Below, piece by piece: positions 9,765 through 34,484 of a stretch of DNA of 56,413 bases. Both the position numbers and the translations under genes were made by a program. Below the pieces are notes generated by a model. It was not told the origin of the DNA. It saw only the letters and a program-made list of their open reading frames with translations, and searched no databases. How positions within the stretch are numbered: position 1 is the stretch's first letter; every line of letters starts with the position of its first letter. Source of the DNA: an uncultured Thermoleophilia bacterium (GTDB lineage: Bacteria > Actinomycetota > Thermoleophilia > UBA2241); NCBI GenBank assembly GCA_963848545.1, contig CAWKEZ010000037.1:1-56413 (forward strand). The letters run 5' to 3'.

Positions 9765-12162
9765 TCAGTCGCCCTCGCTCTCAGCCGCCGGCCGGTACGC
9801 GCGGGGCGGCTCGTGCTGCGCGCCGTGCGGCGCGCCAGGTTGTGCCGCCGCGCCGGCCTCGGGCAGGGCTCGGTAGCCATGACCCTCCATGCTCACGTTG
9901 GGTAGCCATTGCAGCCAGCGCGGCAGGTACCAGTTCCAGTCGCCCAGCAACTCCATGGCCGCCGGCACGATGATGGTGCGCACCACGGTCGCGTCGATGA
10001 GGATCGCGACCGCCAGGCCGAAGCCCATCTGCTGGAACATCACGAGCTGCCCGCTGGCCATGCCGGCAAACACGCAGACCATGATGAGCGCGGCGCCCGT
10101 GATGATGCCAGCCGTACGGCCCACCCCGTGGGCTACCGCCTGACGCGTGTTGCCGGTTTCGTCGTAGCGCTCCTTGATGCGGCTGAGCAGGAACACCTGA
10201 TAATCCATGCTCAGTCCGAAGAGCAGGCTGAAGAGAAAGAGCGGCACCCAGGCCTCGATGGTGCCCACCTTGGTGAAGCCGAGAAGGCCGGCGCCCACGC
10301 CCTTCTGGAAGACCAGGACCATGAGGCCGTAGGCGGCCCCCACGCTGAGCAGGTTCATGGCGATCGCCTTGGCCGGAATGACCACCGAGCGGAACGCCAC
10401 GAGCAGCAGCACGAAGCTGAGGCTCAGCACCATGACGAGGGCGATCGGCAGCCACTTGTGAAAGAAAGCCAGGTAGTCGACCACGCCGGCGGTATTGCCT
10501 GTCACGTACACCTTGGCGGGGCTGCCGGCGAAGGCCGGGGCACTATTTCGTGGCGCAGGTGCTGCACCACGTTCTGGGTGGCGGCGCCGGCTGGGTCGCC
10601 GGCGAGAGTGGTGGAGACGACCGTGAGGGTAGCTGCCTTGTTGACCACGACCTGCGAGGGTCCGAACCTGCCGTCGGCCCGCAGGGCCGCCACGAGCCGC
10701 GTCACAGCCGGCTTCACCTGCGGTGAGCCGGCAGGCCCGTCTACCACGATCTGCAGCGGGTTGGCCTTGCCCAGCGAGAACTCGCGGCCGAGGACGTCCC
10801 AGCCCTGCTTGGCATACTGACTGTCGGGCAGATAGGTCGCGCTCGTGAAGCTGCTGCCCGTCTTCATCACCAGCACCGGCGACGCCAGCACAAGCAACAC
10901 CGCCACCGCCACCGCGAGCCAGATCACCGGCCGCTGCATGATGTTATGGGCGAGGCGCTCCCACACGCTCACATGCCCCTCGCCGCGCATGACGTAGCGC
11001 CCCAGAAGGGGCACGCGCAGCGCGTTCACGCGGTCGCCGAGCAGGCCCATGACGGCAGGCAGCAACACGAGCGCCGTGAGGAGCGTAGTGACTACCACCA
11101 GCATCACGCCGAGTCCCATGCCGATGGTTATGTCGAACGGCACGATCACCATGCCCACCATGGCGAGCACGACGGTCATGCCGCTGAAGAAGATGGCCCG
11201 GTTGGCCGTGGCGCCGGTGGCGGCGATGGCGTCTATCTCGACGAGGCCGCGAGCGCGCTCCTCGCGGTAGCGGGAGATCACGAACAGCGTGTAGTCGATG
11301 CCCACGGCCAGCCCCATCATCGTGAGCACGTTCAGCACGAACGTGCTCATGGGGTAGACCTGGCCGATCACTGCGGTCAGCGCCAGCGCCAGGACGATGC
11401 TGATGATACTCAGCACGAGCGGCATGCCGGCGGCGAGCAGAGCGCCGAACACGAACACGAGCACCACGAGCGCCGCGGGCACGCCGAAGATCTCGCCGCG
11501 CTCGAGGTCTGACTTGGAGACCGTAGAGAACATCGCGTTGATGCTGGCGTCGCCTGTCTCGAAGAGCTTGAACCCGTGGCCGCCGCGGCGAGCACCACGG
11601 CGTGCAGCAGGTGCACGTTCTTGACGGCGGCGTCCACGCCTCCCGCCATGACCACCTGGACAAGCGTTGCGCGCCTGTCTTTGGAGACCAGGGTGGGGTC
11701 GCCGGTCTGGTAGTAGCCCGCGGCACTCTGCACGATGCCGGGGCCGAGGGCGTCGATCTTGCCCACCAGCCTGGCGACAAACGCTTTGTAGGCGGGCTCG
11801 CCAACGGTCGCGTCGGCCGACTGGACGATGACGAAGTCGCTGAACTTCTGTGGCCCGGTGAGGCGCGCCTGCATCAGCTCGAGACCCCTGGTACTGTCGG
11901 GCGGGGTGCCGTGAAACTTCATGTCGGAGGTCAGTCCGCTGCCCAGCAGCGTGACCACGGCGACCAGGCCCAGGACCATCACCACGCCCCAGATGCCCAG
12001 CGTGCGCCAAGGGTGTGTAGCGCTCGCGCGCGCCAAGCGCTCGGTGAACGAGCGGCCGATCGCCCCCTCGCGCCCGGCCCCGTCGCGCCCGGCCCCGTCG
12101 CGCCCGGCCCCGTCGCTCTCGGCGTTCGTCACGGCCCTCACCCCATTCGTGCTTCGCGGCAC
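9765..12162 (-). pseudogene. MMPL family (RND superfamily) transporter (frame disrupted)
   Basis: Three fragments (11410..12162, 10502..12010, 9765..10511) join into an MMPL protein. Motifs include GIDYTLFVISRYREE and GLSMDYQVFLLSRIKERYDE. Frame switches lie near 11580 and 10530. Confidence 0.85.
12068..12112. repeat. 15-bp perfect tandem repeat x3 in the MMPL N-terminus
   Basis: tcgcgcccggccccg occurs at 12068..12082, 12083..12097 and 12098..12112, plus a partial fourth unit. It encodes (DGAGR)x3 on the minus strand. Confidence 0.95.
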
Positions 12163-12364
12163 CCCACTTTAGAGGTCTTGTGTGACCAACCCATTAAGCC
12201 TGCGGCGTCGGGTGCGGCCACGCCGCGCGGCCAGGCGTACACTCACGGAGAAGACAAGAGGGGGCGGGGCGGGCCGGAGAACAAGGGGGGGCCGGCCCGG
12301 CCCGGGCTACCGCGGCCAGAGGCATGCCGGCGGTATGCGGTCGCCGCCGCCCCGCGGCGAGACT

Positions 12365-12399
12365 TGGTGCATGGCGGGCGGAGTCTGGTGCACGGCGGG
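12365..12399. repeat. 14-nt direct repeat with 21-bp phasing in the serA-mmpL intergenic region
   Basis: TGGTGCATGGCGGG (12365..12378) and TGGTGCACGGCGGG (12386..12399), 13/14 identical. A G-tract cluster (G5, G4, G3 ... G7) lies at 12260..12291. Confidence 0.5.
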
Positions 12400-12401
12400 G
12401 A

Positions 12402-14000
12402 CTAAAGCTCAACTCCCTTGCCGTCTTCGAGGCCACAGCTCTTCACGAGCTCGTCGAGCTGGCCGGCCGAGAGCGGTTCGTCCAGCGTGAGAGCCATCAC
12501 GGCCTCGTTCTCCACCGCTCCACGGCCCACCGACATGTGGCCGATGTTCACGCCCCACTGGCCCAGCAGGGTGCCCACAGCGCCACCCACGCCCGGCCGG
12601 TCGGCGTAGCGCAGGAACAGCATGTGGGGTGCCGGTTCAATGTCGATGTCTTCGCCGAAGGCCCTCACCAGACGGGGCTTGTGCTGCGCTCCCAGCGAGG
12701 TGCCCGATACAGACAGGTCGCCGTGGGCGCCGGACGCCGACACAGTGATGATCCACGGGAAATCCGGTACATCCGTCTGGCGCGTCTCCTTGGCGATCAC
12801 GCCGCGCTCGTCGGCAATGCTCTGTGCGTTCACGAAGTTGACGCGTTCGTGCACGGCATCGTGGAGCACACCCGCCAGCACCCCGAGGGTCAGGATCCGC
12901 GTGTCGTAGTAAGCGAAGCTGCCCCCGTAGCGGATCTCCACGGAGCTCACCGGGCTGCCGGCTAGATGCACCACCAGCCGGCCGAGCTGCGTGCAGAGCC
13001 CCATGTACGGCATGAGCTCGGCGGCGTCGTCGCCCAGGGCCAGGGGCACATTGACCGCGTTACTGGCGACCTGCCCCCTCACCGCCGCCGCGACCTGCTC
13101 GGCCACGGCCATGCCCGCGCGCAGCCGCGCGTCGACCGTGGAGGCGTCGAGGTGCGCTGCGAACAGCACGTTCTCGCGGCTCGCCAAGGGGTCACCATCG
13201 ACCGCATCGCCCTCGAAGACCATCACCGCCGACGCCGCCACCTTGCCGCTCTCGAGCGCGGCCAGCCACGCCTTGCGGTCAACAACCCCTGGCCGCGACA
13301 GACTGATGACCCGCACTCCGTCTCTCATGCGCGCGAACGCGTCGCGGCCCACGAATCCCTGGGCGTCGGCAGAGTCAGGCAGATGCACCACGATGAAATC
13401 GGCGGCGGCGTAAACGCGCGCGGGATCGTCTACCCGCATCAGGGGAAGCTCGTGAACGTGCTCGGGCGCCATCGCCGGGTCGTAGGCGACGACGTCCATC
13501 CCCAGGGCACGCGCGTCATGCGCGAGCCGCGCGCCAACCCGACCGAGGCCGATGATGCCCAGGGTCTTGCCGCGCACCTCCACGCCGGTGCCCGCCCATT
13601 TGTCTTCGTCCCAGCGGCCGGCCTTGAGGTCGGCGTGAGTCTGCGCCAGGTTGCGCGCGCAGGCCAAGAGCAGGGCCATGGCCTGCTCGCCCGCCGAGAC
13701 CACGTTGCTCTGCGGCGTGTTGACGACGACGATGCCGAGTCTGGTCGCCGTGGCGACGTCCACGGCATCGACGCTGGCCCCCGTGCGGCCCACCACCTCG
13801 AGGTTCGCAGCGGCGCGCAGGAGGTCTGCCGTGACTCGGGTGGCCGGCCCTACGATAAGGCCCTGGCAGCTGGCGATACGCTCTCGCACCATGTCTTCGT
13901 CCCAGCCGACGGCCGAAACCACCTCCAGCCCCGCGCCCTCGAGATACTCGAGAACCTCCGCGGCCAGATCTTCCTGAACGATGATCGTCTTCGCGCTCAT
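12402..14000 (-). CDS. serA: D-3-phosphoglycerate dehydrogenase, long (type I) form
   Basis: Intact 532-aa ORF. It has 2-hydroxyacid dehydrogenase catalytic and NAD domains (GKTLGIIGLGRVGARLA). The C-terminus has ASB and ACT-like domains (HMLFLRYADRPGVGGAVGTLLGQWGVNIGHMSVGR). Confidence 0.9.
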   Translation of the reverse strand: MSAKTIIVQEDLAAEVLEYLEGAGLEVVSAVGWDEDMVRERIASCQGLIVGPATRVTADLLRAAANLEVVGRTGASVDAVDVATATRLGIVVVNTPQSNVVSAGEQAMALLLACARNLAQTHADLKAGRWDEDKWAGTGVEVRGKTLGIIGLGRVGARLAHDARALGMDVVAYDPAMAPEHVHELPLMRVDDPARVYAAADFIVVHLPDSADAQGFVGRDAFARMRDGVRVISLSRPGVVDRKAWLAALESGKVAASAVMVFEGDAVDGDPLASRENVLFAAHLDASTVDARLRAGMAVAEQVAAAVRGQVASNAVNVPLALGDDAAELMPYMGLCTQLGRLVVHLAGSPVSSVEIRYGGSFAYYDTRILTLGVLAGVLHDAVHERVNFVNAQSIADERGVIAKETRQTDVPDFPWIITVSASGAHGDLSVSGTSLGAQHKPRLVRAFGEDIDIEPAPHMLFLRYADRPGVGGAVGTLLGQWGVNIGHMSVGRGAVENEAVMALTLDEPLSAGQLDELVKSCGLEDGKGVEL

Positions 14001-14095
14001 CGGCGGCCCCCACTCACGGACGTGTTGCTTCCCGGGATACTTGACGACAGGCTAGAGCACGTTAGTGGCAACAGTCCACCTTGGGCTCGGCTGAT

Positions 14096-15479
14096 CTAGG
14101 CCTCCGCACAAAACTCATCGAGCTGGCGGAGTACCACGGTGTCCAGATCGTCCGGCGGTTCGTAGGCCGCCAGACGCTCCGCGACGGCGCGCGTGGCGGC
14201 CCGCGACACGTTCATGGCGTCGCGCGCGCGGCGCGCCGCGGCGGGGTCTCTGCCGAACAGCTCCTCGCGGCCGAACGCGGCGGCGTGGGCGCGGGTGTGC
14301 TTGCACCCCAGGAAGGTGCCGGCGGGGCCCACCGCGGCGATTACGTCGAGGGCCTCCGACAGGTCGTCGATGGAGAGGCCGGCGTGATGCTGCAAGGCCA
14401 TCTCGATCAGATGCTCGTCGAGCACGAACTTCTCGGCTGAGAAGCCGTTGAACGAGCTCAGCATGCCGGCGGCGTGCAGCACAAAATCGACGCCTTCACG
14501 CAAGACCACGAGCATATCGGCAGCCGATTCGGCACCGGCCTGGTAGTCGACCGAATGGGCATCGGTGAGACATCCGCCGGCGCGCACGGGCAAACCGAGC
14601 TCGTGCCCGAGGCGCACAGTCTCCTCCATGAGCAGCCAGTGTGCGGCAGTGCCGAGCAGCAGTCCGCCGTCGCGCATGGAAGACACCGCCGACGTACCGC
14701 CGTAGAGCACCGGGCTGCCCGGCCTGTACGAGCTGGGCCAGGGTGATCTCGGCCAGCGATTCGGCGTGCTGCTGGGCGAGGATGCCGGCCAGTGACAGCG
14801 GCCCCGTGGTGCCGCCCATCACGCAGGGCGTGGCACACACCACCTGCCCCAAGCGGGCAAGGGTCTCGATGCTGGTGCAGACCTCGGCCGAGAGCTGTAG
14901 CGGAGAGGTGGGGTTCATTACCGCGATCACACGTGGCTCGTTTGCCCACGACTCGCCGAACACGATGCCGGCCACGGTGAGCGCATCGCTGAGCTCATCG
15001 GGCGTAGACACGTACGACTGCACCAGCTTGTCGCTCAACGCGTGCGCCGTGCAGAGAACGATGCGTTCGCGCCGCTCCACCGGCAGGTCGAGGGCCGAGG
15101 GCCCGTTGCCGTGCACGTGAACCACCGGCGAGCCGTAGCCGAGCTTCACGGCGGCCTCGAAGTCGGCGAACGTGGAGGGCCGCACCGTCTCGCCCGCGAC
15201 GGTAAACGTGGCCCCCGAGGCGGAGGCCAGGACGGGGGCCGCCCCACCGAACTCGAGGTCGCGAGCGGGCCGACGCCCGCGCACCGTGAAGGTGCGCGGA
15301 GCGTCGGCCAGCGCCTGTTCGACCATCGTGACCGGGAGGAACACGCGCCGCCCGTCTACACTGGCCCCGTGCGCGGCGAACACACTCAGAGCGCCGTCGC
15401 CGAGGACGTCTACCCCTACCTTCGCCAGGAGCTCGAGCCCTGCGCTGTGTATGCGCAGCGTGTCCTCCGCGCCGGTCAT
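14096..15479 (-). pseudogene. MttB-superfamily (trimethylamine methyltransferase-like, non-Pyl) methyltransferase, paralogue 2 (one frame switch)
   Basis: ORF 14496..15479 is the N-terminal part (MTGAEDTLRIHSAGLELLAKVGVDV...). ORF 14096..14710 is the C-terminal part (LYGGTSAVSSMRDGG...FVLDEHLIEMA...VGPAGTFLGCKHT). The switch is near 14710. There is no in-frame TAG. Confidence 0.8.
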
Positions 15480-15483
15480 GCCG

Positions 15484-16939
15484 TCAGGCCTCGGCGGCCG
15501 GCTTGAAACCCTCGACGCACTCGTTGAGGAACTGGTTCACCTCGGCGGCCAGCGGCGCCACCTCGTGCGTGGCCAGCAGCTCCCGAGCCTTCACCTTGGC
15601 GCGGACGTCCATGTCGAGACTGCCGTCGCGCTCCCAGCGGCTGAAGCCGTTGCGGTTCATGATCGTCGGTCGCCACTGCGCGGCCCGCTGGTGGCGCTTC
15701 ATGTGCTTGGTCACCATGTGGTTGCCGCCCGGCCCTACCTCGGCGATAGTGTCGACCGCCATGGTGTCGCGCGTCACCTCGACCCCGCCGAGCACGCGGC
15801 GCGTCATGCCGACGACCTCGTCGACGATAACGAGCTGCTCCGGCGCCCCGCTGAGCCCGAAGTCGAGGTAGCCGCAGTCGTGGTTTAGGTTGGAGCCCAT
15901 GAGCAGGCTCAGCATGATGACCTCGGTGATGTCGATGCCGGCCTGGACATCGACCACCGGCGAGTCGGTCATGCCTGAGTAGCCGAAGTTGGGCAGCCCG
16001 AGCCACTTGGCCATCTCGACGATACAGGCGTACGAGGTGAGATGCTCGGGCGAGGTGTAGGTGTGCTGGGCGGTCATGAGGTCGAGCACCGACGGTCCCA
16101 TGCCGAACAGGAACGGCGAGCCCGGCCGCCGGAGCTGGTGGATGACCAGCCCGAAGAGCGATTCCGCGGTGCCCTGCACCACGTGGCCGGCGCGCGTAAT
16201 GGGGGCGGTGGCCCCGGAGACGGGGGCCGGCGAGTAGATGCACGGCACGCCCCAGTCGGCGCAAAGGAGGAGCTTCTCAAGGGCCGTGTCGCTGTGCGAC
16301 AGGGGGCTCGAGGGCTCGCTGTAGATGACGAAGTATGGCTTGGCGCGCAGCGCCTCGACGCCGCCGCGGATCTGGCACGACACCTCCCACATGGCGCGCA
16401 GGTCTGCGCCGCCCTCGGCGGTCATCACCAGCGGTTTGGTGGTGTTCTGGACCATCACGCGGAACTCTTCGAGGTACGCGTGGTGCGGGTCGAGCTCGTT
16501 GGGGTAGGCGCCCGACATGACGAAGTCGAAGTTGGGCAGCGCGTCGCAAAGCCTCGCCACCCGGGCGACATCGTTCAGCGTGCTCGGGCGATGCTCGCCG
16601 GTCTCGAGGTCCCACGTGCTCATGAGGTCGGAGCCGGTGCCGAAGTAGCTGTTGAACTCGCCCAGCTCCATGGCGAGCACGCCGTTGCGATCGTAGACAG
16701 GAATCATCGGCGGGAGCGCTGGTGCGCGCCTTCTCGACCATCGCCCTGGGGATGCAGATGCGGCCGTCTGCAGCCTCGATGGCGCCCCCGGCCAGGAGCA
16801 GCGCGCGGGCCTCGTCGTGCTGCACTACCATGCCCACGCGGCCGATGATCTCGATCGCGGCGGCGTAGATCTCGCTCTTCTGCTCGTCGGTCAAGAAGCG
16901 CGGCCTGCCGACCATCGACGAGTGTCCAGTGTCAGTCAT
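15484..16939 (-). pseudogene. MttB-superfamily (non-Pyl) methyltransferase, paralogue 1 (one frame switch)
   Basis: The N-terminus (FLTDEQKSEIYAAAIEIIGRVGMVVQHDEARALL...) lies in the ORF 16277..16939 frame. The remaining 407 aa lie in ORF 15484..16707, with the typical C-terminus LVIVDEVVGMTRRVL...VGPGGNHMVTKHM. The switch is near 16715. There is no in-frame TAG. The stop is 4 nt from the start of paralogue 2. Confidence 0.85.
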
Positions 16940-16991
16940 GTTTGGTGCTCTCCATGTGAACGCGTTTGTGTTAACGAAGGGCGGGCACGGC

Positions 16992-17643
16992 TCAGCCGAC
17001 CCCGAGGATCTCCTTGGCCGTGGCCACGGCCTCGATCGCGTCTTCGGCGTAGCCGTCGGCGCCGATCTCGTCGGCCCAGGCGCGCGTCGTGGGAGCGCCG
17101 CCGATCATCACCTTGACGCCCTCGCGCAGGCCGGCGGCCTTCAGCGCCTCGATCGTCTTCTGCTGGTTGGGCATGGTGGTGGTCAGCAGGGCGGAGAGCA
17201 GCAGCAGGTCGGGCTTGAGCTCGCCGACCTTGGCGACGAAGGTCTCGACCGGCACGTCGCAGCCCACGTCGGTGACCGTGAAGCCGGCCGCACTGAGCAT
17301 GGAACTGACGATCGTCTTGCCGATCTCGTGGATGTCGCCGGCGACCGTGCCGGCCACGGCCACGCCGAGTCGCCTTGCGGCCGCCGCCGGCGGCGTCCAG
17401 GGAGGGCTGCAGCACGGCCACGGCGGCCTTCATGGCCTCGGCGCCCTGGACCAGCTCGGGGAGGAAGAACTCGCCGCGCCCGAAGAGGTCGCCGACCTCC
17501 TCGATGCCCTTGACGAAGCCGAGGTCGAGGATGTCGGCGGGCGGCAGGCCGGCCGCGAGGCCCTGGGCCGCCAGCTCTTCGGCGATCTCGACCTCACCGT
17601 CGATCACGCTTTGCTTCATCTGATCGTAGAGCTCTTCTGGCAC
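16992..17643 (-). pseudogene. cobalamin-binding corrinoid protein (MtbC/MtgC-like) (one frame switch)
   Basis: The B12-binding-2 cap domain (MPEELYDQMKQSVIDGEVEIAEEL...GEFFLPELVQGAEAMKAAV) lies in the ORF 16936..17643 frame. The Rossmann B12 domain lies in ORF 16992..17363, with DxHxxG (GDIHEIGK), SxL (LSALL) and GG (MIGGAP). The switch is near 17365. A strong SD (AAGGAGG) precedes the GTG at 17643. Confidence 0.85.
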
Positions 17644-17751
17644 TGGATCCTCCTTCGGCTCCCTTTGCGGGAACCTTTCGCGACTCCATCGATGTCAACG
17701 GGTTGAAGACGCCGCGGGCGGCCGTGCGCAGCGACCTGCCCCCGCCGGGCG

Positions 17752-18966
17752 TCAGCTCTCCAGGAACGTTTTCAGACGCTTCAGCCCCTCCTCGATCTCG
17801 CTGGTGCCGATGCCCCCGTAGGCCACCCGCAAGTAGTACCGCGTCTCAGCGTCGAGCGCGGGACCGAAGTGGGCGCGCGTGCACATCGACACGCCGGTCT
17901 CGCGGAGGACGACACGCCGGAACGCCTCGTAGTCCGTGAGCCCCTTGCGCTGCATGGCGCCGGTTACGTCGGGATAGAGGTAGAAGGTGGTGTTGGGCCG
18001 CAAACAGGTGACCCCGGCGGTTGAGTCGAGGATGTCGGCCGCCACATCGCGGCGCTCGCGCAGCACCGTGGTGATGTAGTGCGCTCCGCGCTGGTCACCG
18101 GTGAGGGCCTCCAGACCGCCCCACTGCACGAACTGGTTGGTACACGACTCGAGATTGGTGTTGAGCTTTACGATCACATCGATGACGGCCTCGGGCCCGA
18201 TCGCCGCACCCAGCCGCCAGCCGGTCATCGCGTACTTCTTGGAGAATGTAAAGAGGATCACGCAGCGGCTCTGCATGCCGGGCAGCGAGGCCAGCGAGCG
18301 GCTGCGGCCGCCGTCGAGACGCACGTCGAAGTAGGCTTCGTCGCAGAGCACCTGCAGGTCGTGCTCGAGCACCAGCTCCGCCAGCCGTTGCAGCTCGGCC
18401 GGGGTGCACTCGGCCCCGGTGGGGTTGTGCAGATCGTTCAAGATGAGCAGCCTGGTGCGCGCCGAGATGCTCCGCTCGAGGCCGTCGAGGTCGATGGCAA
18501 AACCGTTGGCGCCCTGATGCAGGGTGTAGGGCACCGCGGTGCCACCCAGGTACCCTATCAGCGAGCTGTAGATGGGAAACCCGGGGTTGGGGTAGAGCAC
18601 CTCGTCGCCGCTGTTCATCATGGCCATCAGGAACTTGCCGATCACGGGCTTGCCGCCCGGCTGCACGGCCACGTTGTCGGCGCCGTAGCTCAGCCCGCGA
18701 GCCTCGCCCACCTGCGCGGCGAGCACATCGCGCAGCTCGGGAAGGCCCGCGTTGGGGCAATACATGGTCTTGCCGTCGCGCATCGCCTTGCAGGTGGCCT
18801 CGACGATGTTCTCGGGCGTCGGCAGGTTGAGGTCGCCGAGGTGGAACGGGTACACGCGATGCCCTTGCGCCGCGAAGGCGTTCGCCTCGGCGGCCGCCGT
18901 GAACGCGTTCTCGGTGCCGAGACGATCGGTTCTACGCGCCAGCGACGCGGTCGCCACGGCAGCCAT
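17752..18966 (-). CDS. PLP-dependent aminotransferase, class I/II
   Basis: Intact 404-aa ORF with fold-type I aminotransferase pattern: YPNPGFPIY, NDLHNPTG, and the lysine motif FSKKYAMTGWRLG. The specific substrate cannot be assigned. Confidence 0.85.
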   Translation of the reverse strand: MAAVATASLARRTDRLGTENAFTAAAEANAFAAQGHRVYPFHLGDLNLPTPENIVEATCKAMRDGKTMYCPNAGLPELRDVLAAQVGEARGLSYGADNVAVQPGGKPVIGKFLMAMMNSGDEVLYPNPGFPIYSSLIGYLGGTAVPYTLHQGANGFAIDLDGLERSISARTRLLILNDLHNPTGAECTPAELQRLAELVLEHDLQVLCDEAYFDVRLDGGRSRSLASLPGMQSRCVILFTFSKKYAMTGWRLGAAIGPEAVIDVIVKLNTNLESCTNQFVQWGGLEALTGDQRGAHYITTVLRERRDVAADILDSTAGVTCLRPNTTFYLYPDVTGAMQRKGLTDYEAFRRVVLRETGVSMCTRAHFGPALDAETRYYLRVAYGGIGTSEIEEGLKRLKTFLES

Positions 18967-18968
18967 GA

Positions 18969-19814
18969 TCAGTGTGCCGCCCAGGCGACGAACTTGTCGT
19001 GCTCGCCCTCGAGCATGCGGTAGCAGTGCGCCTCTTCGGGGAAGACGCCGCCGCGCACGTCTTTGACGTACTCACGGAGAGCCGCGGTGGCCACCCCGGC
19101 CAGATCGGCGTACTTCTTCACGAACTTGGGCGTGAACGCCTGGAACGTGCCCAGCACGTCGCTCACGATGAGCAGTTGACCGTCGACCGACTCACCGGCG
19201 CCGATGCCGAGCACGGGAATAGGCAGCTCGGCCCTGATGAACGCGGCCACCTCGGGCGGCACGGCCTCGAGCAGCAGCAGCTGCACGCCTGCCTGGTAGA
19301 GGGCGCGGGCGTCTTCGACGACCAGCTTGGCGCTCTCCAGCGTGCGACCCTGGGCCTTGTGGCCGCCGAGCTGCCCCGAGCTCTGCGGCGTGAGGCCGAT
19401 GTGGCCGCAGACCACGATGCCGGCGTCGAGGATGGCCTTCACGCGGCTGATCACGCGCACCCCACCCTCGAGCTTGATGGCGTCGACGTCCGCCTCCTTC
19501 AGGAAGCGGCCGGCATTACGCACCGCCTCTTCATCGGACACCTGGTAGCTCATGAACGGCATGTCGCCGACGACGAACGCGCTGGGAGCGCCGCGACGCA
19601 CCGCCTCGCAGTGCACGATGCACTGGTCCATGGTCACCGGCACCGTGCCGGGATAGCCGTACACGCACATGCCGAGTGAGTCGCCCACCAGGATCATGTC
19701 GATGCCGGCGGCCTCCTCGAAGGTGGCCGTGGGGTAGTCGTAGGCGGTGAGCCAGGTAATCTTCTCGCCCCGGCGCTTCATCTCGTGAAGGTCGAGAACG
19801 CCCTTCTTCGGCAT
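18969..19814 (-). CDS. panB: 3-methyl-2-oxobutanoate hydroxymethyltransferase
   Basis: Intact 281-aa ORF with PanB family motifs: TAYDYPTA, LVGDSLGM, GDMPFMSY, AIKLEGG, GHIGLTPQS, IGIGAG...DGQLLV. Confidence 0.9.
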   Translation of the reverse strand: MPKKGVLDLHEMKRRGEKITWLTAYDYPTATFEEAAGIDMILVGDSLGMCVYGYPGTVPVTMDQCIVHCEAVRRGAPSAFVVGDMPFMSYQVSDEEAVRNAGRFLKEADVDAIKLEGGVRVISRVKAILDAGIVVCGHIGLTPQSSGQLGGHKAQGRTLESAKLVVEDARALYQAGVQLLLLEAVPPEVAAFIRAELPIPVLGIGAGESVDGQLLIVSDVLGTFQAFTPKFVKKYADLAGVATAALREYVKDVRGGVFPEEAHCYRMLEGEHDKFVAWAAH

Positions 19815-19894
19815 GTCGCTTCTCCTCTTCTTCTCGTGATCTTGGACGGTGGAAGGGCTTGGCTCGCCCCCCAGACCGTCCGCCTAGACGTGAC

Positions 19895-20392
19895 TCATCC
19901 GCCGTTCGGGAATACCGGCCAGCCTTTGTCTGACACCGATTCGGCGAGCACCAGAAGCGTCTCGAACTGCATTACACCGGGGATCTTGGCCAGGTCTACC
20001 CGCACCATCTGGGCGAGATGGTCGAGGTCGCGGACGGCGAGAAGGATGATCATGTCGAACTGCCCGGTGACGTGGTAGCAGACGCGCACACCCAGAACGT
20101 GTTTCACCGCCTCTTCGAAGGTGCGGATGGCCTCCTGGTTGTGCTCGCGCAGCTTCGCCATCACCACGGCCTGCACGCCGATGCCCAGCGCCGCCGGGCT
20201 GGCGATGGCGCGGTACTCGCGGATGGCGCCGCTGTTCTCCAGCCTGCGCACGCGGCCCAGCATGGCCGACGGGGAGAGGTTGAAGCGGCGCGCCAGGGCC
20301 AGGTTCGAGATACGCCCTTCGCGCTGCAGTGCCTCCACTATGTCTCTGTCCAGTGAGTCCAACTCTTCCTCCAGGGTCTCCGAGAGGCGCAA
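19895..20392 (-). CDS. Lrp/AsnC family transcriptional regulator
   Basis: Intact 165-aa ORF. It has an N-terminal HTH (LDRDIVEALQREGRISNLALARRFNLSPSAMLGRVRRLENSGAI) and a C-terminal RAM/AsnC_trans_reg domain. Confidence 0.85.
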   Translation of the reverse strand: MRLSETLEEELDSLDRDIVEALQREGRISNLALARRFNLSPSAMLGRVRRLENSGAIREYRAIASPAALGIGVQAVVMAKLREHNQEAIRTFEEAVKHVLGVRVCYHVTGQFDMIILLAVRDLDHLAQMVRVDLAKIPGVMQFETLLVLAESVSDKGWPVFPNGG

Positions 20393-20498
20393 TCAGCCTA
20401 TGGCCGAAAGTTCAGGCTGTCAACACGGAATGTGAATTTCATGCCGCCATATCGCCGCTAGACACTCCTTCTTATCGATTGCGAGATGGCAATACAGT

Positions 20499-21486
20499 TC
20501 ATTTGCCCTCGGCAACAACCTCGGCCAGAGCCTCCACAGTGGCCACGCCATCGTCTACCACCGCGACGTCGGCGTTGCCCATGATCGCCGCCTGCTCGTC
20601 AAGGTTGATGGCCACGATGAACGCCGCCTTCTCGATGCCCCAGTGCAGCGCCGCCGCCCCCGAGGCCCCGGCGACGACACAGACCACCGGTGCCACGCGC
20701 GCGCCGGAGACCCCGACGAGGCGGTCCATGGGGGCCCAAGCGTTCATCGCCACTGGGCGCGTCACGCCAAAGGCGGCGCCCATGCGCCGCGCGGCCAGGG
20801 CGATGCGCTCCACCCCATCGCGGCTCCCCGCCCCGTACCCCGCCACCACCACAAACCGGCTGCCGGCGAGGTCGCCGGCGCCCGGCAGATCGGTGAGCTC
20901 GAAGGTCTTCGAACGGCGCCGGGGCCGCCTCTGCCGACCCCGCGGGCACGGCCTCGTCCTCCACCTCGCCCAGGATGCGGTGCTCACCTGGGGCGGGGGC
21001 GGGGCCGTCGTTCCAGCTGGCGTCGATGCTGACGCACCACGGCCGGGCGCGCAGGGCAAAGCGCCCCATCAGGTGGTTGGAGTAGACGCTCTTGCGGCAG
21101 AGGAGGCGCTCCGGGCCCGCCTGCGCGCGCAGCACGTCGGTGAGCAGCGCTCCGCCGCGGCGCACAGCAAGCCGCGCGGCCAGCTCGCTGCCGGCGCAAC
21201 CGGGGGCGCATACGTGGAGCGCCACGTCGCCGAGCGACGTCGCGTCGCACGCCGCGGCCGCCAGCGCGGCCAGGCGCTCTGGCCGCCGCGCCGCCGTGCG
21301 CACCAGCCGCACGTCGCGAGTGGGCGCCAACCCCACGAGGCGCCCGCGCTCGCGCGCATCCGTGTAGAGGATCAACGTCTCCCCCACCAGCTCGCCGCTC
21401 AGGCCCTCGGCGAGAAAGCTGCCCAAGGCCCGCGCCTGCCGCGGCGCTCCGGCGATCGTCCCGTCGACGATGGCGACGAATCTCAT
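20499..21486 (-). pseudogene. etfA: electron transfer flavoprotein alpha subunit-like (one frame switch)
   Basis: The ATG at 21486 overlaps the etfB stop (ATGA). The N-terminal domain lies in the ORF 20599..22269 frame (MRFVAIVDG...). The FAD-binding C-terminus lies in ORF 20499..21059 (VVVAGYGAGS...VTRPVAMNAWAPMDRLVGVSGARVAP...VAGASGAAALHWGIEKAAFIVAINLDEQAAI). The switch is near 20905. Confidence 0.8.
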
Positions 21487-22328
21487 GACGGCCCGGTCAT
21501 GCCTGCCAGCAAGCCTTTCAGATGCGCGTCGTAGACCGTCTCCGCCTTCTCGCGCGGCGTATCCCCGGCGGCGATCACGCCGCGCCGGCCGCGAGCGATG
21601 GCCTCGAGCCCCGCGAGGACGCCGCCGGACTCGCGGCCCACCTCGGCGGTAACGTCTACGCCCAGCTCCCGCGGCGTCAGAGTGGCGATGACGTGGTCGC
21701 GGCGCGCGAGGCGCGCCGCCAGGGTGGGCACGCGCAGGTGCGATACCACGGCATTGCCCACTGCCAGCACGCAGGGGGGTCGCAGCGTGAGACGCAACAG
21801 GCCATCGCCCGTCACGCAGGCCACCCGCAAGCGCCCCGCGGGCTGCGGCTCTACCTCGGTGACCTCCGCCAAGCAGGGCCAGCCCAACGCCTCCGCCACG
21901 AAGAACGGCACGGCGCCGCTGTCGCCAGGGCCACAACGCTCGCCGAGCAGCAGCAGATCGCTGTGATCTATCGCGCGCGCGTAGCTTGCCAGAAGCGCCG
22001 CGGTGACGGCCGGCGCGAAGTCGAGGTTCACCTCCGGGTGCACCCGGGCCACGCGCTCGTATCCCAGCGCCGACAGCGTCTTCAGGAACGGCTCGGCCCC
22101 GCGACCGCCCACGGTGACGGCACCGAGGTCGAGCGAACCGCCGGCCGGGCCGCCGCCGGCCGTTGCTTCCGCCAGGCGCAGCGCCAACTCCAAGGCACTC
22201 TCGTCGAAACAGTTGAGCACGCGACGCACGTAGGCGATGTCTGCGCCGTGCGCCGCGGCGGCGACCCACGCGGCATCGCGCAACGCCTCGTAATCAGGGG
22301 TGACCTTGAAGCACACGAGGATCTTCAT
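21483..22328 (-). CDS. etfB: electron transfer flavoprotein beta subunit-like
   Basis: Intact ORF. MKILVCFKVTPDYE... is a typical ETF-beta/FixA-like N-terminus. The start is taken at ATG 22328; GTG 22337 is also possible. Confidence 0.8.
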   Translation of the reverse strand: MKILVCFKVTPDYEALRDAAWVAAAAHGADIAYVRRVLNCFDESALELALRLAEATAGGGPAGGSLDLGAVTVGGRGAEPFLKTLSALGYERVARVHPEVNLDFAPAVTAALLASYARAIDHSDLLLLGERCGPGDSGAVPFFVAEALGWPCLAEVTEVEPQPAGRLRVACVTGDGLLRLTLRPPCVLAVGNAVVSHLRVPTLAARLARRDHVIATLTPRELGVDVTAEVGRESGGVLAGLEAIARGRRGVIAAGDTPREKAETVYDAHLKGLLAGMTGPS

Positions 22329-22349
22329 GGCGCTCACCCTTCATAGGGC

Positions 22350-23792
22350 TCACTTCGGCAAGATCGTACCCTTGTTCATGATGTCGTTGGGGTCGAAGGC
22401 CTTCTTCAGGGTCTCCAGGATGAAGTACGACGACCCGTACTCGTCTCTCACCCACGGGGTGCGCGCTTTGCCCAGACCGTGATGGTGGACGATAGAGCCG
22501 CCCAGGCGCAGCGTCTCCCCACAGATGATCTCGTTGATGGGGGTGTGGTATTTGGTGATCTCCTCCTGGGGCTCGCAGTCGACCACGTTGTAGTAGTAGA
22601 CGAAGTACATGTTGGTGCCGTTTATGTAGCTGTGGGAAGAGTGACCGCCGGCCATGGTGATGTCTGGGATCTCGGCGATGATGCGGCACCGGGCGCTCTC
22701 GTAGATGTCGTAGATGCAGTCCCAGCAGCCGGAGACCTCGGTGGTGAAGCCGACGTTGCCGGTCTGCGCGATCTCTTCACGCTCCTCGGCGATCTTGTCT
22801 GGACCCCAGTTGAGGTCGGCGAACCAGGTGGCGATGAGCTTACCATCGACCTCCCGGCACTCGGGGTGGCGCGCCACGATGGCCGCGATGCCCTCGGCCG
22901 TGGCCCGGGCCACGCCCGCCGCGCCCTCGGCCATGAAGATCAGGATGCAGTCGTCCTCGGCCGCGAAGTGGGAGAAGTGGAAGGCGCCGTCGTCGGGGTC
23001 GTAGAGACGCGCCACCGAAGGCTTGTAACCGTTCACCATGACCTCGCGCAACACCTCGAAGCCGGTCTTCATGCTCTTCAGAGTGTAGCCCAGGAAGGCG
23101 TTGTTCTCGGGCAAGTAAGGATACAGCTTCACCGTGACCTCGGTGATGTAGCAGAGAGCGCCCTCGTTGCCGATCACCACATGGCGGATGTCGGGGCCCG
23201 CCGCGCGCCGCGGGACGTTCTTGATGCGCGTCACGGTGCCGTCGGGGAACACCGCCTCCAGGCCGACCACCATGTCTTCGATGCCGCCGTAGAGGGTCGA
23301 GAACTGGCCGATGCTGCGCGTCGCCACGAGGCCGCCCATCTGCGCCAGTGGTTTGGACTGCGGCGAGTGCCCGGTGGTCAGCCCTTGCTCGCGGGCGCGG
23401 TCTTCCAGCACCTGCAGCGGCGCGCCGCACTGTGCGGTGGCCTGCATGTTGTAGGCGTCGATCTTGAGAATCTGGTTCATGGGCGAGCCGTCGAGGACGA
23501 TGGAGTCGGCCACCGCCGTCTCGAGACCGCCCTCGGTGGCCGTGTGCCCCGTGCGGGGCACCACGTTGATGCCGTGCGCGTTGGCGAACTTGAGCACCGC
23601 GGCGACCTGCTCGGTGCTGTGCACCATGACCACCGCGGCGGGGAGCGGCTGAGTATAGACACCGTGAATCTCTTCGAACTTGCGGTAGCGGTCGACGCTG
23701 CTCTCCTGGAGCACGCGATGGTCGGTGATGACGGCCTCCGGGCTCAAGATGCTCTGCAGACCTGCGACGATGTCTTCTCTCTTCAAGTGCAT
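22350..23792 (-). CDS. FAD-linked oxidase (VAO/PCMH fold), alkyl-DHAP-synthase/YgcU-like
   Basis: Intact ORF from ATG 23792 (MHLKREDIVAGL...). The FAD_binding_4 region is VVMVHSTEQVAAVLKFANAHGINVVPRTGHTATEGG. The C-terminal part carries HSSHSYINGTNMYF and the tri-His motif VHHHGLGK. Confidence 0.85.
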   Translation of the reverse strand: MHLKREDIVAGLQSILSPEAVITDHRVLQESSVDRYRKFEEIHGVYTQPLPAAVVMVHSTEQVAAVLKFANAHGINVVPRTGHTATEGGLETAVADSIVLDGSPMNQILKIDAYNMQATAQCGAPLQVLEDRAREQGLTTGHSPQSKPLAQMGGLVATRSIGQFSTLYGGIEDMVVGLEAVFPDGTVTRIKNVPRRAAGPDIRHVVIGNEGALCYITEVTVKLYPYLPENNAFLGYTLKSMKTGFEVLREVMVNGYKPSVARLYDPDDGAFHFSHFAAEDDCILIFMAEGAAGVARATAEGIAAIVARHPECREVDGKLIATWFADLNWGPDKIAEEREEIAQTGNVGFTTEVSGCWDCIYDIYESARCRIIAEIPDITMAGGHSSHSYINGTNMYFVYYYNVVDCEPQEEITKYHTPINEIICGETLRLGGSIVHHHGLGKARTPWVRDEYGSSYFILETLKKAFDPNDIMNKGTILPK

Positions 23793-23832
23793 GACGGCAC
23801 TCCCTGGTATGTGTTCGCGGCTTGCGATGGAA

Positions 23833-25263
23833 CTAGTGAAAGATCGGATACGAACGCTCGAGGACCCCATCGGTGGTGTCGCGGATGGTTCTGTAGACGG
23901 CGTTCATGCGCGCGTACAGGTCGGCGTTCGGCGGATCTGGGGAAAACGTCTCGCGCTGCTTCGTCATGGCGGCCACGGCGGTAACGAAGTCGGGGTAGAC
24001 GCCGGTGGCCACGGCCGCACAGATCGCCGACCCCAGGCCGGCACCGCCGCCGGCCACGCTGCGCGACGACGGAATGCCGAACACGTCAGCGAAGATGCGC
24101 ATGAAGAGCGGGCTGCTGGCGCCGCCACCCGAGACGACGATCTCGTTCAGCACGATGCCCAGCTCGGCGCACATCGCATCGACCCGGCTCTTCATGGTCA
24201 AGGCGATGGCCTCGAGGATGGAGCGGTAGATGTGGGCCCTGGTGTGGCGCGCGTCGAAGCCGAGCATGACGCCCTTGCGAAACGGGGCCTCGGCGGGAGC
24301 GAGCCAGTCCAGGACGGTCATCAGGCCGTCGCTGCCCGCGGCGACCGACTGTGCCTCGCGTTCCAGGTACTGCTCCCGCGAGAGCCCCTGCGCCCGGGCC
24401 GCCTTGGCCACGTCGTCGCCGAGGATGTCCAGGAACCAGCTCACCGTCCACATGCCCCGGCGGATGCCGTGACTCTCATAGAGATACTGGTTCGGCACGC
24501 AGGCGAAGTTTGTCCAGAACTCCCTGGGCGTCTTCAAGTTCTGGCGGCCGTGCACCATGGAGGCTATGTAGGTGCCCAGCGAGATGAGGGCCGTCTTCTC
24601 GGAGAGCGAGCCCGAGCCCAGGGCCTCCACCGCCTTGTCGTTGGCGGTGGCCACCACCGGGATCCCGCTGGGCATGCCGGTGGCCGCGGCCGCGGCCGCC
24701 GTCACGTGCCCAGCGACGCTGCCAGGCATCTGCAGGTTGAACAGCATCTCGCGCGGGATGGCCCACCGCTCGAGGACGGCAGGATCGTTGCTCCACTGCC
24801 ACGTGTCGGTATCGATCGGCCATTGCCCCTCGATGTAGTTGGCGACCGTGTCGCTGAACTGCCCCGTGAAGCGATGCGTGATGTAGCCCGAGCTCGTGGT
24901 CACGTAGGCGACGGCCGGGTTGTCGGCCACGTAGGGCTCATACGCCCGGGTGTCCATCCAGCTCATCGCCGGCGACGCCAGGGAGCCGTCTTCTTTGAGG
25001 AAGGCGCGCTCGCAGCGTATGGTGCAGACGCCGACGCCGACGATCTCGTGCGGATCACCGCCGAACTGCGCCATCGCCCGGCGGCTGGCGGCGGCGATGG
25101 AGTCCCAGAGATCGTCGTCGGGGTGCTCGACGACCCCGTTTCGTGGGCGGCTCATGGGGCGCAGCGCCTGCCTGCTCTCGCAGACGACGCTGCCTTCGCG
25201 GTCGTAGATGGCCACCTTGGAGCTCTGCGAGCCGCCGTCTACGCCGATGATGTAGGTGCCCAT
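23833..25263 (-). CDS. FGGY-family carbohydrate kinase
   Basis: Intact 476-aa ORF. N-terminus IGVDGGSQSSKVAIYD; C-terminal domain VVSGGGASSPLFMRIFADVFG...GAGLGSAICAAVATGVY. Confidence 0.85.
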   Translation of the reverse strand: MGTYIIGVDGGSQSSKVAIYDREGSVVCESRQALRPMSRPRNGVVEHPDDDLWDSIAAASRRAMAQFGGDPHEIVGVGVCTIRCERAFLKEDGSLASPAMSWMDTRAYEPYVADNPAVAYVTTSSGYITHRFTGQFSDTVANYIEGQWPIDTDTWQWSNDPAVLERWAIPREMLFNLQMPGSVAGHVTAAAAAATGMPSGIPVVATANDKAVEALGSGSLSEKTALISLGTYIASMVHGRQNLKTPREFWTNFACVPNQYLYESHGIRRGMWTVSWFLDILGDDVAKAARAQGLSREQYLEREAQSVAAGSDGLMTVLDWLAPAEAPFRKGVMLGFDARHTRAHIYRSILEAIALTMKSRVDAMCAELGIVLNEIVVSGGGASSPLFMRIFADVFGIPSSRSVAGGGAGLGSAICAAVATGVYPDFVTAVAAMTKQRETFSPDPPNADLYARMNAVYRTIRDTTDGVLERSYPIFH

Positions 25264-25275
25264 CGCGTCGCCGCC

Positions 25276-26052
25276 CTAGCGAACCCGGTATCCGCCATCC
25301 ACCACCACGAGGTGGCCGTTCACGTAGTCGGATGCCCGGCTGGCCAAAAAGACGACGGCGCCCATCAGGTCGAGGGGCTCGCCCCAGCGGCCCGCCGGAA
25401 TGTGGTCTAGCACGCGCTGGTTGGTCTCGGGGTTGCTGCGCGTCGCGCTCGTGATCTCGGTCGCGTAGTAGCCCGGCGCGATGCCGTTGACCTGGATGTT
25501 GTACTGGGCGAGTTCGTCGCAGTAGGCCTTGGTGAAGCCGGCGAGGCCGTGCTTGGTGGCCGCATAGGCCGGCGACCACTGCCCGCCGAGGTACGAGAAG
25601 AGCGAGCAGGTGTTGATGATCTTGCCGCTACGCTGCGGGATCATGTGCTTCGCGGCCTCGTAGCTCAGCTCGAAGGCGGCGGTGAGGTTGACGTCGATCA
25701 TTGGGTCCCACTGCGGTCTGCCGAAGTCGAGTACCTCGGCGAGCTTGCAGATGCCGGCGCTGTTTACCAGGATGTCGATCGCGCCGAGCCTCGCCACGCA
25801 CGCGTCGATGATCTCCCGGCAGGCGCCCGGCGCGGTGACGTCTATCTTCAGGAACTCGTAGCGGCCGCCGGCGGCCTCGATCATCTCCCTGGTCTCGCCG
25901 TCGTCGTCCATGATGCTGGGGACGAAGACGTTGGCGCCGCCCTTGGCGAGGGCCAGCGCGAACGCCTGGCCAAGCCCCGTGTTGCCCCCGGTGACGATGC
26001 TGTTTCTGCCCTCCAGGGAGAAATAACCCATGGCGAAATCTGTGATGCCCAT
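25276..26052 (-). CDS. short-chain dehydrogenase/reductase, KduD/YgcW-like
   Basis: Intact from ATG 26052 (MGITDFAMGYFSLEGRNSIVTGGNTGLGQA). It has the TGxxxGxG motif, NSAG, and the catalytic YAATKHG (YxxxK). Confidence 0.9.
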   Translation of the reverse strand: MGITDFAMGYFSLEGRNSIVTGGNTGLGQAFALALAKGGANVFVPSIMDDDGETREMIEAAGGRYEFLKIDVTAPGACREIIDACVARLGAIDILVNSAGICKLAEVLDFGRPQWDPMIDVNLTAAFELSYEAAKHMIPQRSGKIINTCSLFSYLGGQWSPAYAATKHGLAGFTKAYCDELAQYNIQVNGIAPGYYATEITSATRSNPETNQRVLDHIPAGRWGEPLDLMGAVVFLASRASDYVNGHLVVVDGGYRVR

Positions 26053-26099
26053 CGTAGACTGTCTCCTTAGCTGCGGATTAGGCGGCCGCGTGCGACGCG

Positions 26100-29154: not shown

Positions 29155-29158
29155 CGCG

Positions 29159-30103: not shown

Positions 30104-30112
30104 CCCGGGTCC

Positions 30113-31834: not shown

Positions 31835-31923
31835 ATCGCTTCTCCCCCTTGGTGAACGCCTGCGAAACGACACTAACCGTGACGGCGCCGGCCGGAGCCT
31901 CACGGTCCCAACACATTGCGGCC

Positions 31924-31952: not shown

Positions 31953-32164
31953 GAGAAGATTGACCGGTTAGTTAGCAGTGAGGAGGCCATCAAGCACGGA
32001 ATAATTCTGTCTCGGGCCGCCGGATCAGCACGAAGACGCTATCTGGCGGCCAGCGCTAACATATGTGCGATTACGGGCTTCAGTGTTCAGAGCGCTCCGA
32101 CGACGGCCCGCCGCCGGGCTGAACCGGCACCGCATATGCTACCCTTGCATGGTCCGTCTGCAAG

Positions 32165-33004: not shown

Positions 33005-33020
33005 GCGCCGCCCGGCGCCC

Positions 33021-34379: not shown

Positions 34380-34449
34380 GTGACCTCCCATCGCCTTCCC
34401 TGCACCAAGCGCTTCAGACCTGCATTTGACAAAGCATAGCGCGAGGTCC

Positions 34450-34484
34450 ATGGTACATACCAGAAACCCGATGGTACATACCAT
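34450..34484. promoter_or_regulatory. two tandem palindromic operator-like sites (TGGTA-CA-TACCA)
   Basis: ATGGTACATACCA occurs at 34450..34462 and ATGGTACATACCAT at 34471..34484. The arms ATGGTA/TACCAT are inverted repeats. Centres are 21 bp apart. The sites lie 18-52 nt upstream of the glpD GTG (34502), in the 122-bp divergent intergenic region. Confidence 0.55.

Follow-up and report, generated by a model that had tools for sequence, protein, structure and literature searches.

The window analysed here is the 56,413-nucleotide (nt) stretch at positions 1-56,413 of contig CAWKEZ010000037.1 (NCBI GenBank assembly GCA_963848545.1; about 68% G+C) of an uncultured Thermoleophilia bacterium. Seven co-directional genes on its minus strand, spanning positions 12402-20392, comprise those for a corrinoid protein (CoP) and for two methyltransferases of the MttB superfamily without pyrrolysine (Pyl), here called MttB1 and MttB2, preceded by those for an Lrp/AsnC-family regulator (Lrp), the ketopantoate enzyme PanB and an aminotransferase (AT), and followed by that for a SerA-type dehydrogenase (Table 1). 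The intergenic gaps from Lrp to SerA are, in order, 80, 2, 108, 52, 4 and 95 nt, the start of AT lying 2 nt past the panB stop and that of MttB2 4 nt past MttB1. The Pfam assignments were in agreement with the seven gene calls, the coordinates and the gap range of 2-108 nt given in an earlier note on this DNA; that note had, however, bounded the array at Lrp, upstream of which genes on the same strand run on as far as 31903. Neither tRNA-Pyl nor pyl genes were found in the window, and the search of the window for a cobalamin riboswitch or other RNA elements gave only two tRNAs. A promoter and terminator scan of 12000-20700 gave no signal above chance and none in the intergenic regions.

Table 1. 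Features of the window; the three sites of extra bases are approximate.
Feature	Position	Strand	Assignment or basis
Lrp/AsnC-family regulator, upstream of panB	19895-20392	−	PF13412, PF13404, PF01037
PanB, 3-methyl-2-oxobutanoate (ketopantoate) hydroxymethyltransferase	18969-19814	−	Pantoate_transf (Pfam), E = 2e-106
AT, class I/II pyridoxal-phosphate aminotransferase, aspartate/aromatic-aminotransferase-like, 404 amino acids (aa)	17752-18966	−	PF00155 (Aminotran_1_2)
CoP, corrinoid (B12-binding) protein, about 214-216 aa repaired	16992-17643	−	PF02607, E = 7e-19; PF02310, E = 1e-28
MttB1, A-type non-Pyl MttB-superfamily methyltransferase, 484 aa repaired	15484-16939	−	PF06253
MttB2, B-type non-Pyl MttB-superfamily methyltransferase, 460 aa repaired	14096-15479	−	PF06253
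SerA-type D-3-phosphoglycerate dehydrogenase, 532 aa	12402-14000	−	2-Hacid_dh, PGDH_inter, ACT
Extra base splitting CoP gene (C on coding strand)	17369		Alignment with intact gene of L001
Extra base splitting MttB1 gene (G on coding strand)	16708		Alignment; L001 reads ...SAPAMIPVY...
Extra base splitting MttB2 gene (A on coding strand)	14725		Alignment; L001 reads ...QLVRPGSPVLYGG...
Upstream block: EtfA (frameshifted), EtfB, FAD_binding_4 oxidase, FGGY kinase, KduD-like short-chain dehydrogenase/reductase (SDR), transporter genes	20499-31903	−	Pfam, NCBIfam
Opp-type ABC transporter: double ABC ATPase, two permeases, SBP_bac_5 binding protein	in 20499-31903	−	Pfam, NCBIfam
tRNA-Cys(GCA) and tRNA-Gly(GCC), sole tRNAs, at window start	31-105 and 188-264	−	

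The joined fragments of both MttB genes covered positions 33-493 of the 500 of the MTTB profile, and the B12-binding domains were likewise recovered in CoP, which bears out the family assignments of the earlier note. CoP consists of a B12-binding_2 cap and a B12-binding Rossmann domain, as in proteins of the MtgC/MttC/MtqC type. The motifs DxHxxG (GDIHEIGK), SxL (SAL) and GG (MIGGAP), which the note had read in it, are present in the translation of what is a canonical corrinoid protein, 92% identical to an intact 216-aa orthologue in the closest relative (L001, see below) and 79-87% identical to its counterparts in other loci of the same panB type. No in-frame stop was found in repaired MttB1 or MttB2, in agreement with the reported lack of an in-frame TAG, and MttB1 carries Met opposite the Pyl position of methanogen Pyl-MttB (PDB 7XCL), where A-type sequences in general have Met or Thr. 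MttB1 is 93% identical to the intact 484-aa protein P0001. The two methyltransferases had been taken for paralogues; they are indeed members of one superfamily encoded 4 nt apart, but after repair they share only 25% identity and are not close paralogues.

Among PDB entries, MttB2 gave 245 bits with MtgB, the glycine betaine methyltransferase (E = 9e-72, 34% identity), and MttB1 gave 174 bits with MtgB (E = 7e-50, 26% identity) and 172 bits with Pyl-MttB. In a neighbour-joining tree of 159 MttB sequences from 80 related loci, built after clustering and without bootstrap, with MtgB and Pyl-MttB as the two characterised references, the B-type sequences including MttB2 were sister to MtgB, and the A-type sequences including MttB1 formed their own clade apart from both references. 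The glycine-betaine site of MtgB is made up of Y97, R312, H348 and F356, and the equivalent of R312, which pairs with the acidic group in a salt bridge, is kept in every characterised non-Pyl member (PMC13080624). At these four positions MttB1 has Ser, Phe, His and Gly (one of four identical) and MttB2 has Ser, Arg, His and Phe (three of four), so that the motif is not that of MttB1 and is found in MttB2, at 34% identity, without Y97. The same pattern holds for the two types at large: B-type sequences keep R312 (in PVRAG), H348 and F356; of the 94 A-type sequences, all have PN[W/F]G in place of R312 and keep only H348. The position of R312 is taken by Tyr in Pyl-MttB and by Phe or Trp in the A-type. 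Since MttB2 retains the Arg and His by which MtgB holds the carboxylate, together with one aromatic residue, it probably binds an acidic betaine, and MttB1, with Phe/Trp for Arg, would be expected to accept a different substrate or methylation state. Judged by these residues, MttB1 is not an MtgB and matches no characterised MttB specificity.

The CoP and MttB genes are each divided between two frames, with no further lesions or stops. The closest relative, the metagenome-assembled genome (MAG) MFD04492.bin.1.102 of class Thermoleophilia (locus L001, the same as L005), served as the reference for indel alignment; it shares the gene order of the window, the nucleotide identity being about 84%, and the genes for CoP (216 aa) and the two MttBs (484 and 460 aa) are all intact in it. 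The alignment placed a single extra base in each window gene (Table 1), which confirmed the one switch per core gene reported earlier and moved the last of the three from 14710 to about 14725. More than 20 frame breaks, about 0.4 per kb, occur in otherwise well-conserved genes of the window (example regions 9765-12162, 20499-21552, 30113-31903, 40725-41993 and 53977-56333), including those for MMPL (two), EtfA, SBP_bac_5 (two), Aminotran_3 (two), TetR, MFS, GGDEF, CMD and ADH; in unrelated genes about nine are of the insertion type and about six of the deletion type. The relatives are long-read MFD MAGs with Flye-style 'contig_N' names, and the contig itself looks like an unpolished long-read assembly. 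Given the single-base nature of the breaks, the intact copies in L001 and the more than 20 breaks in unrelated genes, we read the three switches as insertion errors of long-read assembly and not as the decay which the earlier note had considered. That the three core genes are true pseudogenes of a decaying remnant would account for a break in every one of them; it is nevertheless highly improbable, close to negligible, because each break is of one base without any other lesion, like breaks affect unrelated genes across the window, those of L001 fall in other genes (AT, SerA and Etf genes), and the G+C content at third codon positions stays at 0.84-0.95 over the fragments of the split genes. 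Programmed +1 frameshifting was considered because all three breaks are +1, and was rejected: the sites share no motif, both indel types occur elsewhere, and L001 has none of the three breaks. In annotation, a "pseudogene" of a long-read MAG should accordingly not be taken for decayed on the strength of frameshifts. Elsewhere in the window, an open reading frame at 507-2279 has an N-terminal NIF3/DUF34 and a C-terminal RNase H domain with an Arg/Pro-rich middle that is seemingly out of frame; as L001 carries a 573-aa NIF3-RNase H fusion, the fusion is probably real and its middle garbled in the window by indels.

A scan of the GTDB species genomes gave 76 loci, almost all in MAGs of Thermoleophilia or Actinomycetota, with which the window proteins were compared by tblastn, and a PanB-based sample of 80 metagenome contigs was drawn, of which 40 were informative with PanB at least 81% identical and 22 with PanB 74-78% identical. 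The order Lrp-panB-AT-MttB is not unique to this genome, being found in some 20 MAG species of Thermoleophilia/Actinomycetota and on 26 of the 40 contigs. The A-type orthologue group that is 54-57% identical to MttB1 has an AT gene adjoining, within 4 kb, in 18 of 20 cases, PanB beside it in 16 and Lrp in 14, the shortfalls including contig ends. A-type genes of panB-type loci are mostly accompanied by a B-type gene (47-50% identical to MttB2) and CoP, in the orders CoP-A-B (window, L001), B-CoP-A (L006), A-CoP-OCD-B with an ornithine-cyclodeaminase-family gene (L041, L047) and A-B-CoP (L081, L129). Wherever AT follows panB and at least 700 nt lie beyond it, MttB comes next (19 of 19 contigs). 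The best PDB matches of the window AT are aspartate and aromatic aminotransferases, and it reached no NCBIfam cut-off. Other loci with MttB1-family genes hold a different class-I AT (28-31% identity), a class-IV AT, or ammonia-lyases of the 4-methylideneimidazole-5-one (MIO) type together with Hut genes. Since the neighbour that keeps recurring takes off an alpha-amino group, amino-acid-derived methylammonium compounds are pointed to as the substrates of the MttB1 family.

The AT could instead belong with PanB, Lrp-panB-AT being an operon for valine to 2-oxoisovalerate to ketopantoate, downstream of which an unrelated MttB/CoP cassette has landed. The tight junction of the two genes (2 nt apart in the window, stop and start overlapping in L081 and L082, one 693-aa panB-AT product called in L002) and the Lrp type of the regulator speak for this reading. 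It is judged improbable in view of the invariable MttB behind AT, the joint loss of AT and MttBs in L083, the unrelated class-I ATs directly upstream of other MttB1-family genes, and the 14 of 40 close panB orthologues without AT.

PanB scored 311 bits against TIGR00222 (cut-off 207.55) and 348.7 against NF001452 (cut-off 272), and 221 bits with PanB of M. tuberculosis (PDB 1oy0). In the contigs with PanB at least 81% identical, AT is directly downstream in 26 of 40 and missing in 14, whose PanB is 86-92% identical and 13 of which also have no MttB; the identity of PanB is alike with or without AT (83-92%). At 74-78% identity none of the 22 informative contigs has AT behind PanB. Lrp and PanB are intact in L083, in which only remnants of MttB (51 and 80 aa) and AFOR (124 aa) are left; in L067 and L118 PanB is followed directly by MttB without AT, L082 has MttB-PanB-AT, L149 CoP-PanB-MttB, and L084 MttB'-Lrp-PanB. 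From this distribution, Lrp-PanB looks like a wider ancestral pair to which AT-MttB(-CoP)-MttB was attached as an accessory module, and on the strength of its equivalog score, its module-less orthologues and its retention in L083 PanB is read as a housekeeping anchor. The regulator shows general Lrp/AsnC domains only (99.8 bits against the NF008370 equivalog cut-off of 233). SerA scored 473.4 bits against TIGR01327 (cut-off 454), with PGDH_inter and ACT domains present; it adjoins the module in the window and L001 only, a 54%-identical homologue lying elsewhere in L030 and L054. The conservation of the array, for which the earlier note had asked for a comparison of related genomes, holds for Lrp-panB-AT-MttB and not for SerA, and neither SerA as a part of the array nor PanB as the folate enzyme of its pathway was upheld.

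The wiring in question would make PanB an integral folate-linked step: the two MttBs demethylate an N-methylated amino acid, AT transaminates it, and PanB, a methylene-tetrahydrofolate enzyme, takes up the 2-oxo acid together with the SerA-type dehydrogenase. In a concrete version, homoserine betaine would be converted to homoserine, 4-hydroxy-2-oxobutanoate, and pyruvate plus methylene-tetrahydrofolate. The translational coupling of panB and AT agrees with it, as do the independent orders in which MttB flanks panB (L082, L118, L149, L084), the occurrence of other tetrahydrofolate or one-carbon genes near MttB modules (Fae in L081, FTCD and Pterin_bind in L003) and the adjoining glycerol-type block of FGGY kinase, SDR, a flavoenzyme closest in the PDB to alkyl-dihydroxyacetone-phosphate synthase, and GlpD. 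P. putida PanB is moreover a candidate 4-hydroxy-2-oxobutanoate aldolase, with partial growth (bioRxiv 10.1101/2025.02.17.638773). We regard this wiring as distinctly unlikely, since PanB passes the equivalog cut-offs, AT is missing behind equally conserved orthologues in 14 of 40 contigs and behind every one of the 22 of lower identity, L083 keeps PanB after deletion of the module, AT is missing in L067 and L118 despite the MttB behind PanB, SerA adjacency is confined to two genomes, and the very large number of MttB genes in these genomes makes chance adjacency likelier. Adjacency to panB or serA thus need not imply a common pathway. The idea of DGTS (diacylglyceryltrimethylhomoserine) or homoserine betaine, prompted by the FGGY kinase, SDR, flavoenzyme, GlpD, AT and PanB, is carried only into the reading of full demethylation given below, since several loci of the panB type have no such upstream block.

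That block, SDR-FGGY-FADox-EtfBA (window 20499-26097), stands upstream of Lrp-panB in about nine MAG loci (L038, L042, L056, L058, L059, L080, L095, L111, L129) and several metagenome contigs, and is absent from L081 and L082. Its FAD_binding_4 oxidase matches alkyl-dihydroxyacetone-phosphate synthase with E = 4e-42, and a GntR-FAD_oxidored-GlpD trio at 32126-36256 of the window recurs beside the cluster in L056. The block may be a glycerol or glyceryl-ether catabolic unit; a tie between the block as far as 31903 and the MttB module is unproven. Several panB-type loci have accessory genes of their own: a Fae homologue divergent from Lrp (L081, 6684-7178), a DUF1638 protein encoded on the other strand, some 2 kb downstream from CoP (L123, 13239-13982), and members of the ornithine-cyclodeaminase/mu-crystallin family between CoP and the B-type MttB (L041, 12448-13425; L047, 14233-15357). 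In L082 (962-10075) CoP, an MtmB-family gene (PF05369), Pro_racemase, BKACE, Aminotran_3, MttB, PanB and AT follow one another, an arrangement that suggests proline-betaine- or carnitine-like metabolism beside panB-AT. In L083 (10914-12748, 16022-19588) the AT-MttB-MttB-AFOR module behind Lrp-panB has shrunk to short remnants, with fragmented MttB genes and a Dimeth_Pyl (MtbB-family) gene in two pieces (346 + 124 aa) nearby; that this last gene is in two pieces may be due either to an in-frame UAG (pyrrolysine) or to errors of assembly. A Fer4_11 protein paired with a molybdopterin oxidoreductase is encoded at 48928-51896 of the window, the pair recurs close to MttB genes in L025 (12730-15255), and a molybdopterin oxidoreductase alone in L002 (16815-18851).

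The lack of an MtgA/MtqA gene and of a RamA gene from the window, as stated in the earlier note, was confirmed: neither Pterin_bind (PF00809, the MtgA/MtqA domain) nor RACo/RamA Pfam domains were found among its coding segments, and a profile made from 40 MtgA-like proteins found no match in its six frames (best E = 4.2). The note had treated this absence as a special feature, a view that was not supported. On a 4.6-Mb contig of MAG FR_37, Pterin_bind is encoded at locus L003 and is missing from L023, an MttB and CoP locus some 23 kb off; trans-encoded partner sharing therefore occurs in this class. A shuttle without the methylcorrinoid:tetrahydrofolate methyltransferase (MT2) would offer another solution, with one MttB loading the carrier from a donor amine and the other running in reverse onto an acceptor amine. 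The fixed trios of A-type, B-type and CoP without Pterin_bind in cis in about 20 loci would suit such a shuttle, as would the lack of a close MtgA homologue on the known contigs of panB-type MAGs. It is considered very unlikely, because Hut-type loci hold B-like MttBs alongside Pterin_bind, where the B-type is thus no substitute for MT2, because we know of no MttB member that acts in the methylating direction, and because the absence of MT2 refers to windows of 20 kb.

A protein of 330-350 aa is encoded directly beside MttB1-family genes in about 15 loci (L003, 15816-16811; L004, 12868-13911) and is absent from the window. Its C-terminal part is a 2x[4Fe-4S] ferredoxin domain, and the N-terminal 260 aa or so gave no Pfam, NCBIfam or PDB match. 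This Fe-S protein is a candidate corrinoid activator or electron-input protein; as a substitute for RamA at the present locus it was rejected, having no recognisable N-terminal domain and no gene in the window.

The family of all three core proteins, the lack of Pyl, the cobalamin motifs, the intact orthologues in a close relative and the recurrence, across genomes, of the trio of A-type, B-type and CoP and of the AT-MttB pairing were established here, and the locus holds a real module of CoP, A-type and B-type MttB and AT, probably functional and belonging to an uncharacterised MttB lineage expanded in Thermoleophilia. As an explanation of the whole we favour, with moderate confidence, an MttB/corrinoid methyl-transfer module next to a housekeeping Lrp-panB pair, its frame switches being assembly errors. 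Each MttB would bind a methylammonium compound, one N-methyl group of which is taken over by the Co(I) form of the carrier protein. MttB2 would act on an acidic betaine by means of its Arg/His carboxylate pair and one of the two aromatic residues that face the quaternary nitrogen in MtgB, and MttB1 would bind another substrate or methylation state, which may be non-acidic. From the methyl-Co(III) carrier an MtgA-type enzyme would pass the methyl group to tetrahydrofolate, and an activase would re-reduce the carrier; both enzymes are presumed to be encoded elsewhere in the genome, after the pattern of related Thermoleophilia. The neighbouring AT would deaminate the amino-acid skeleton of the substrate or product, Lrp-panB would be an ordinary ketopantoate gene pair with the module behind it, and serA a lineage-specific neighbour.

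Several points weigh against this explanation. An aminotransferase requires a primary amine. Two MttBs cannot remove three methyl groups. The earlier proposal that an amino-acid-type substrate is demethylated and then deaminated remains plausible and fits the 19 of 19 contigs with MttB behind AT. To our knowledge, no non-Pyl MttB demethylates tertiary or secondary amines. The tree was built without bootstrap and with only two characterised references. No MtgA-like gene lies within 10 kb of any panB-type locus, and among the 120 best homologues of the L003 MtgA none was on a known contig of a panB-type MAG, only contigs of the Hut type being matched, so that trans-encoded partners are an assumption for this lineage. 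Finally, panB and AT are translationally coupled and MttB stands beside panB in several orders (L082, L084, L118, L149), for which reason a functional link to PanB is possible, although unproven.

In a bolder reading, soil Thermoleophilia would employ divergent non-Pyl MttB sets, an A-type with one or two B-types, on one CoP to remove every N-methyl group of amino-acid betaines, and the free amino acid would pass to a dedicated deaminating enzyme. This is held to be unlikely. In the Hut-linked clusters, hercynine would by this route be converted to histidine, the substrate of the MIO-type histidine ammonia-lyase, and at the present locus the product from the betaine might pass to AT and the resulting 2-oxo acid to the translationally coupled PanB, for instance along the sequence from homoserine betaine to pyruvate and methylene-tetrahydrofolate set out above. 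Full demethylation, if true, would need Pyl-free MttB enzymes that act on tertiary or secondary amines, and would make of the Arg-less A-type clade a new specificity class.

In L003 (3890-20605; also L008, L012, L013 and L015), HutU is accompanied by CoP, an A-type MttB, a histidine ammonia-lyase with an intact MIO motif (GASGDLAPL), two B-like MttBs, the Fe-S protein, HutI, FTCD, a cyclodeaminase and Pterin_bind. This cluster looks like a B12-dependent route from trimethylhistidine (hercynine) into histidine catabolism, and no description of such an MttB/Hut cluster was found in the literature searched. Two groups of Lyase_aromatic proteins are further encoded beside MttB genes: in one (15 loci) the MIO triad Ala-Ser-Gly reads Ala-Cys-Gly, and in the other, which reads GSLG[E/A]S-DLAP, the Gly is missing. 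Examples are L004 (13955-15400), L026, L065, L066, L072 and L075, where the lyase is beside the Fe-S protein, and L007, L017, L024 and others with a divergent lyase. Lacking the Gly, the second group is probably unable to form MIO, and its members may be betaine (trimethylamine-releasing) lyases.

The MttB-superfamily members whose substrates are known to us are a handful, all from anaerobic Firmicutes or methanogens. The locus stands for a large clade, so far uncharacterised, that has expanded in Thermoleophilia of soil and peat. An Arg-less A-type goes there with an MtgB-like B-type and one CoP, and the set is linked with enzymes that deaminate amino acids. Should hercynine or other amino-acid betaines be the substrates, the clade would bring B12-dependent turnover to abundant methylated nitrogen compounds in soil and extend the known chemistry of the MttB family. 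No paper tying MttB to hercynine, panB, an aminotransferase or Thermoleophilia was found in the literature searched, nor was the A/B pairing, the Arg-less A-type clade or the coupling to AT or histidine ammonia-lyase. Many mtxB genes have already been reported to be encoded and expressed by Actinobacteriota of soil and peat (PMC10805028).

Among known systems, MtgB/MtgC/MtgA of the Firmicute Desulfitobacterium hafniense (PDB 2QNE, 9YCE) likewise combines a non-Pyl TIM-barrel methyltransferase, the substrate-specific MT1 component, with a corrinoid protein of about 215 aa. MttB2, placed as sister to MtgB in the tree, is 34% identical to it and has R312, H348 and F356, with Ser or Gly in place of Y97, whereas MttB1, 26% identical, shares H348 only. 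The soil Thermoleophilia locus differs further in having no MtgA or RamA in cis, a single CoP for two divergent MT1s, and AT in the unit. The same logic is found in Eubacterium limosum, where MtpB (proline betaine), MtcB (carnitine), MtyB (gamma-butyrobetaine) and MthB (phosphocholine) work with MtqC/MtqA and RamA, several MttB specificities feeding a common corrinoid protein, MT2 and activase that are possibly encoded elsewhere; all these members keep the Arg equivalent to R312 (PMC13080624), which MttB1 does not. To the MttB of the Pyl-containing trimethylamine methyltransferase MttB/MttC of methanogens (7XCL) MttB1 is about as similar as to MtgB (172 and 174 bits), and both carry an aromatic residue where MtgB has R312 (Tyr in Pyl-MttB, Phe/Trp in the A-type); MttB1 differs in its Met at the Pyl position and the lack of an in-frame TAG. 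The Hut-linked clusters of other Thermoleophilia (L003, L008, L012, L013, L015) likewise combine a member of the A-type clade, at 57-60% identity to MttB1, with B-like MttBs, CoP and a deaminating enzyme. There the deaminating enzyme is a MIO-type histidine ammonia-lyase, accompanied by HutU, HutI, FTCD, an in-cluster Pterin_bind MT2 and three MttBs, in contrast to the AT and two MttBs without MT2 of the present locus.

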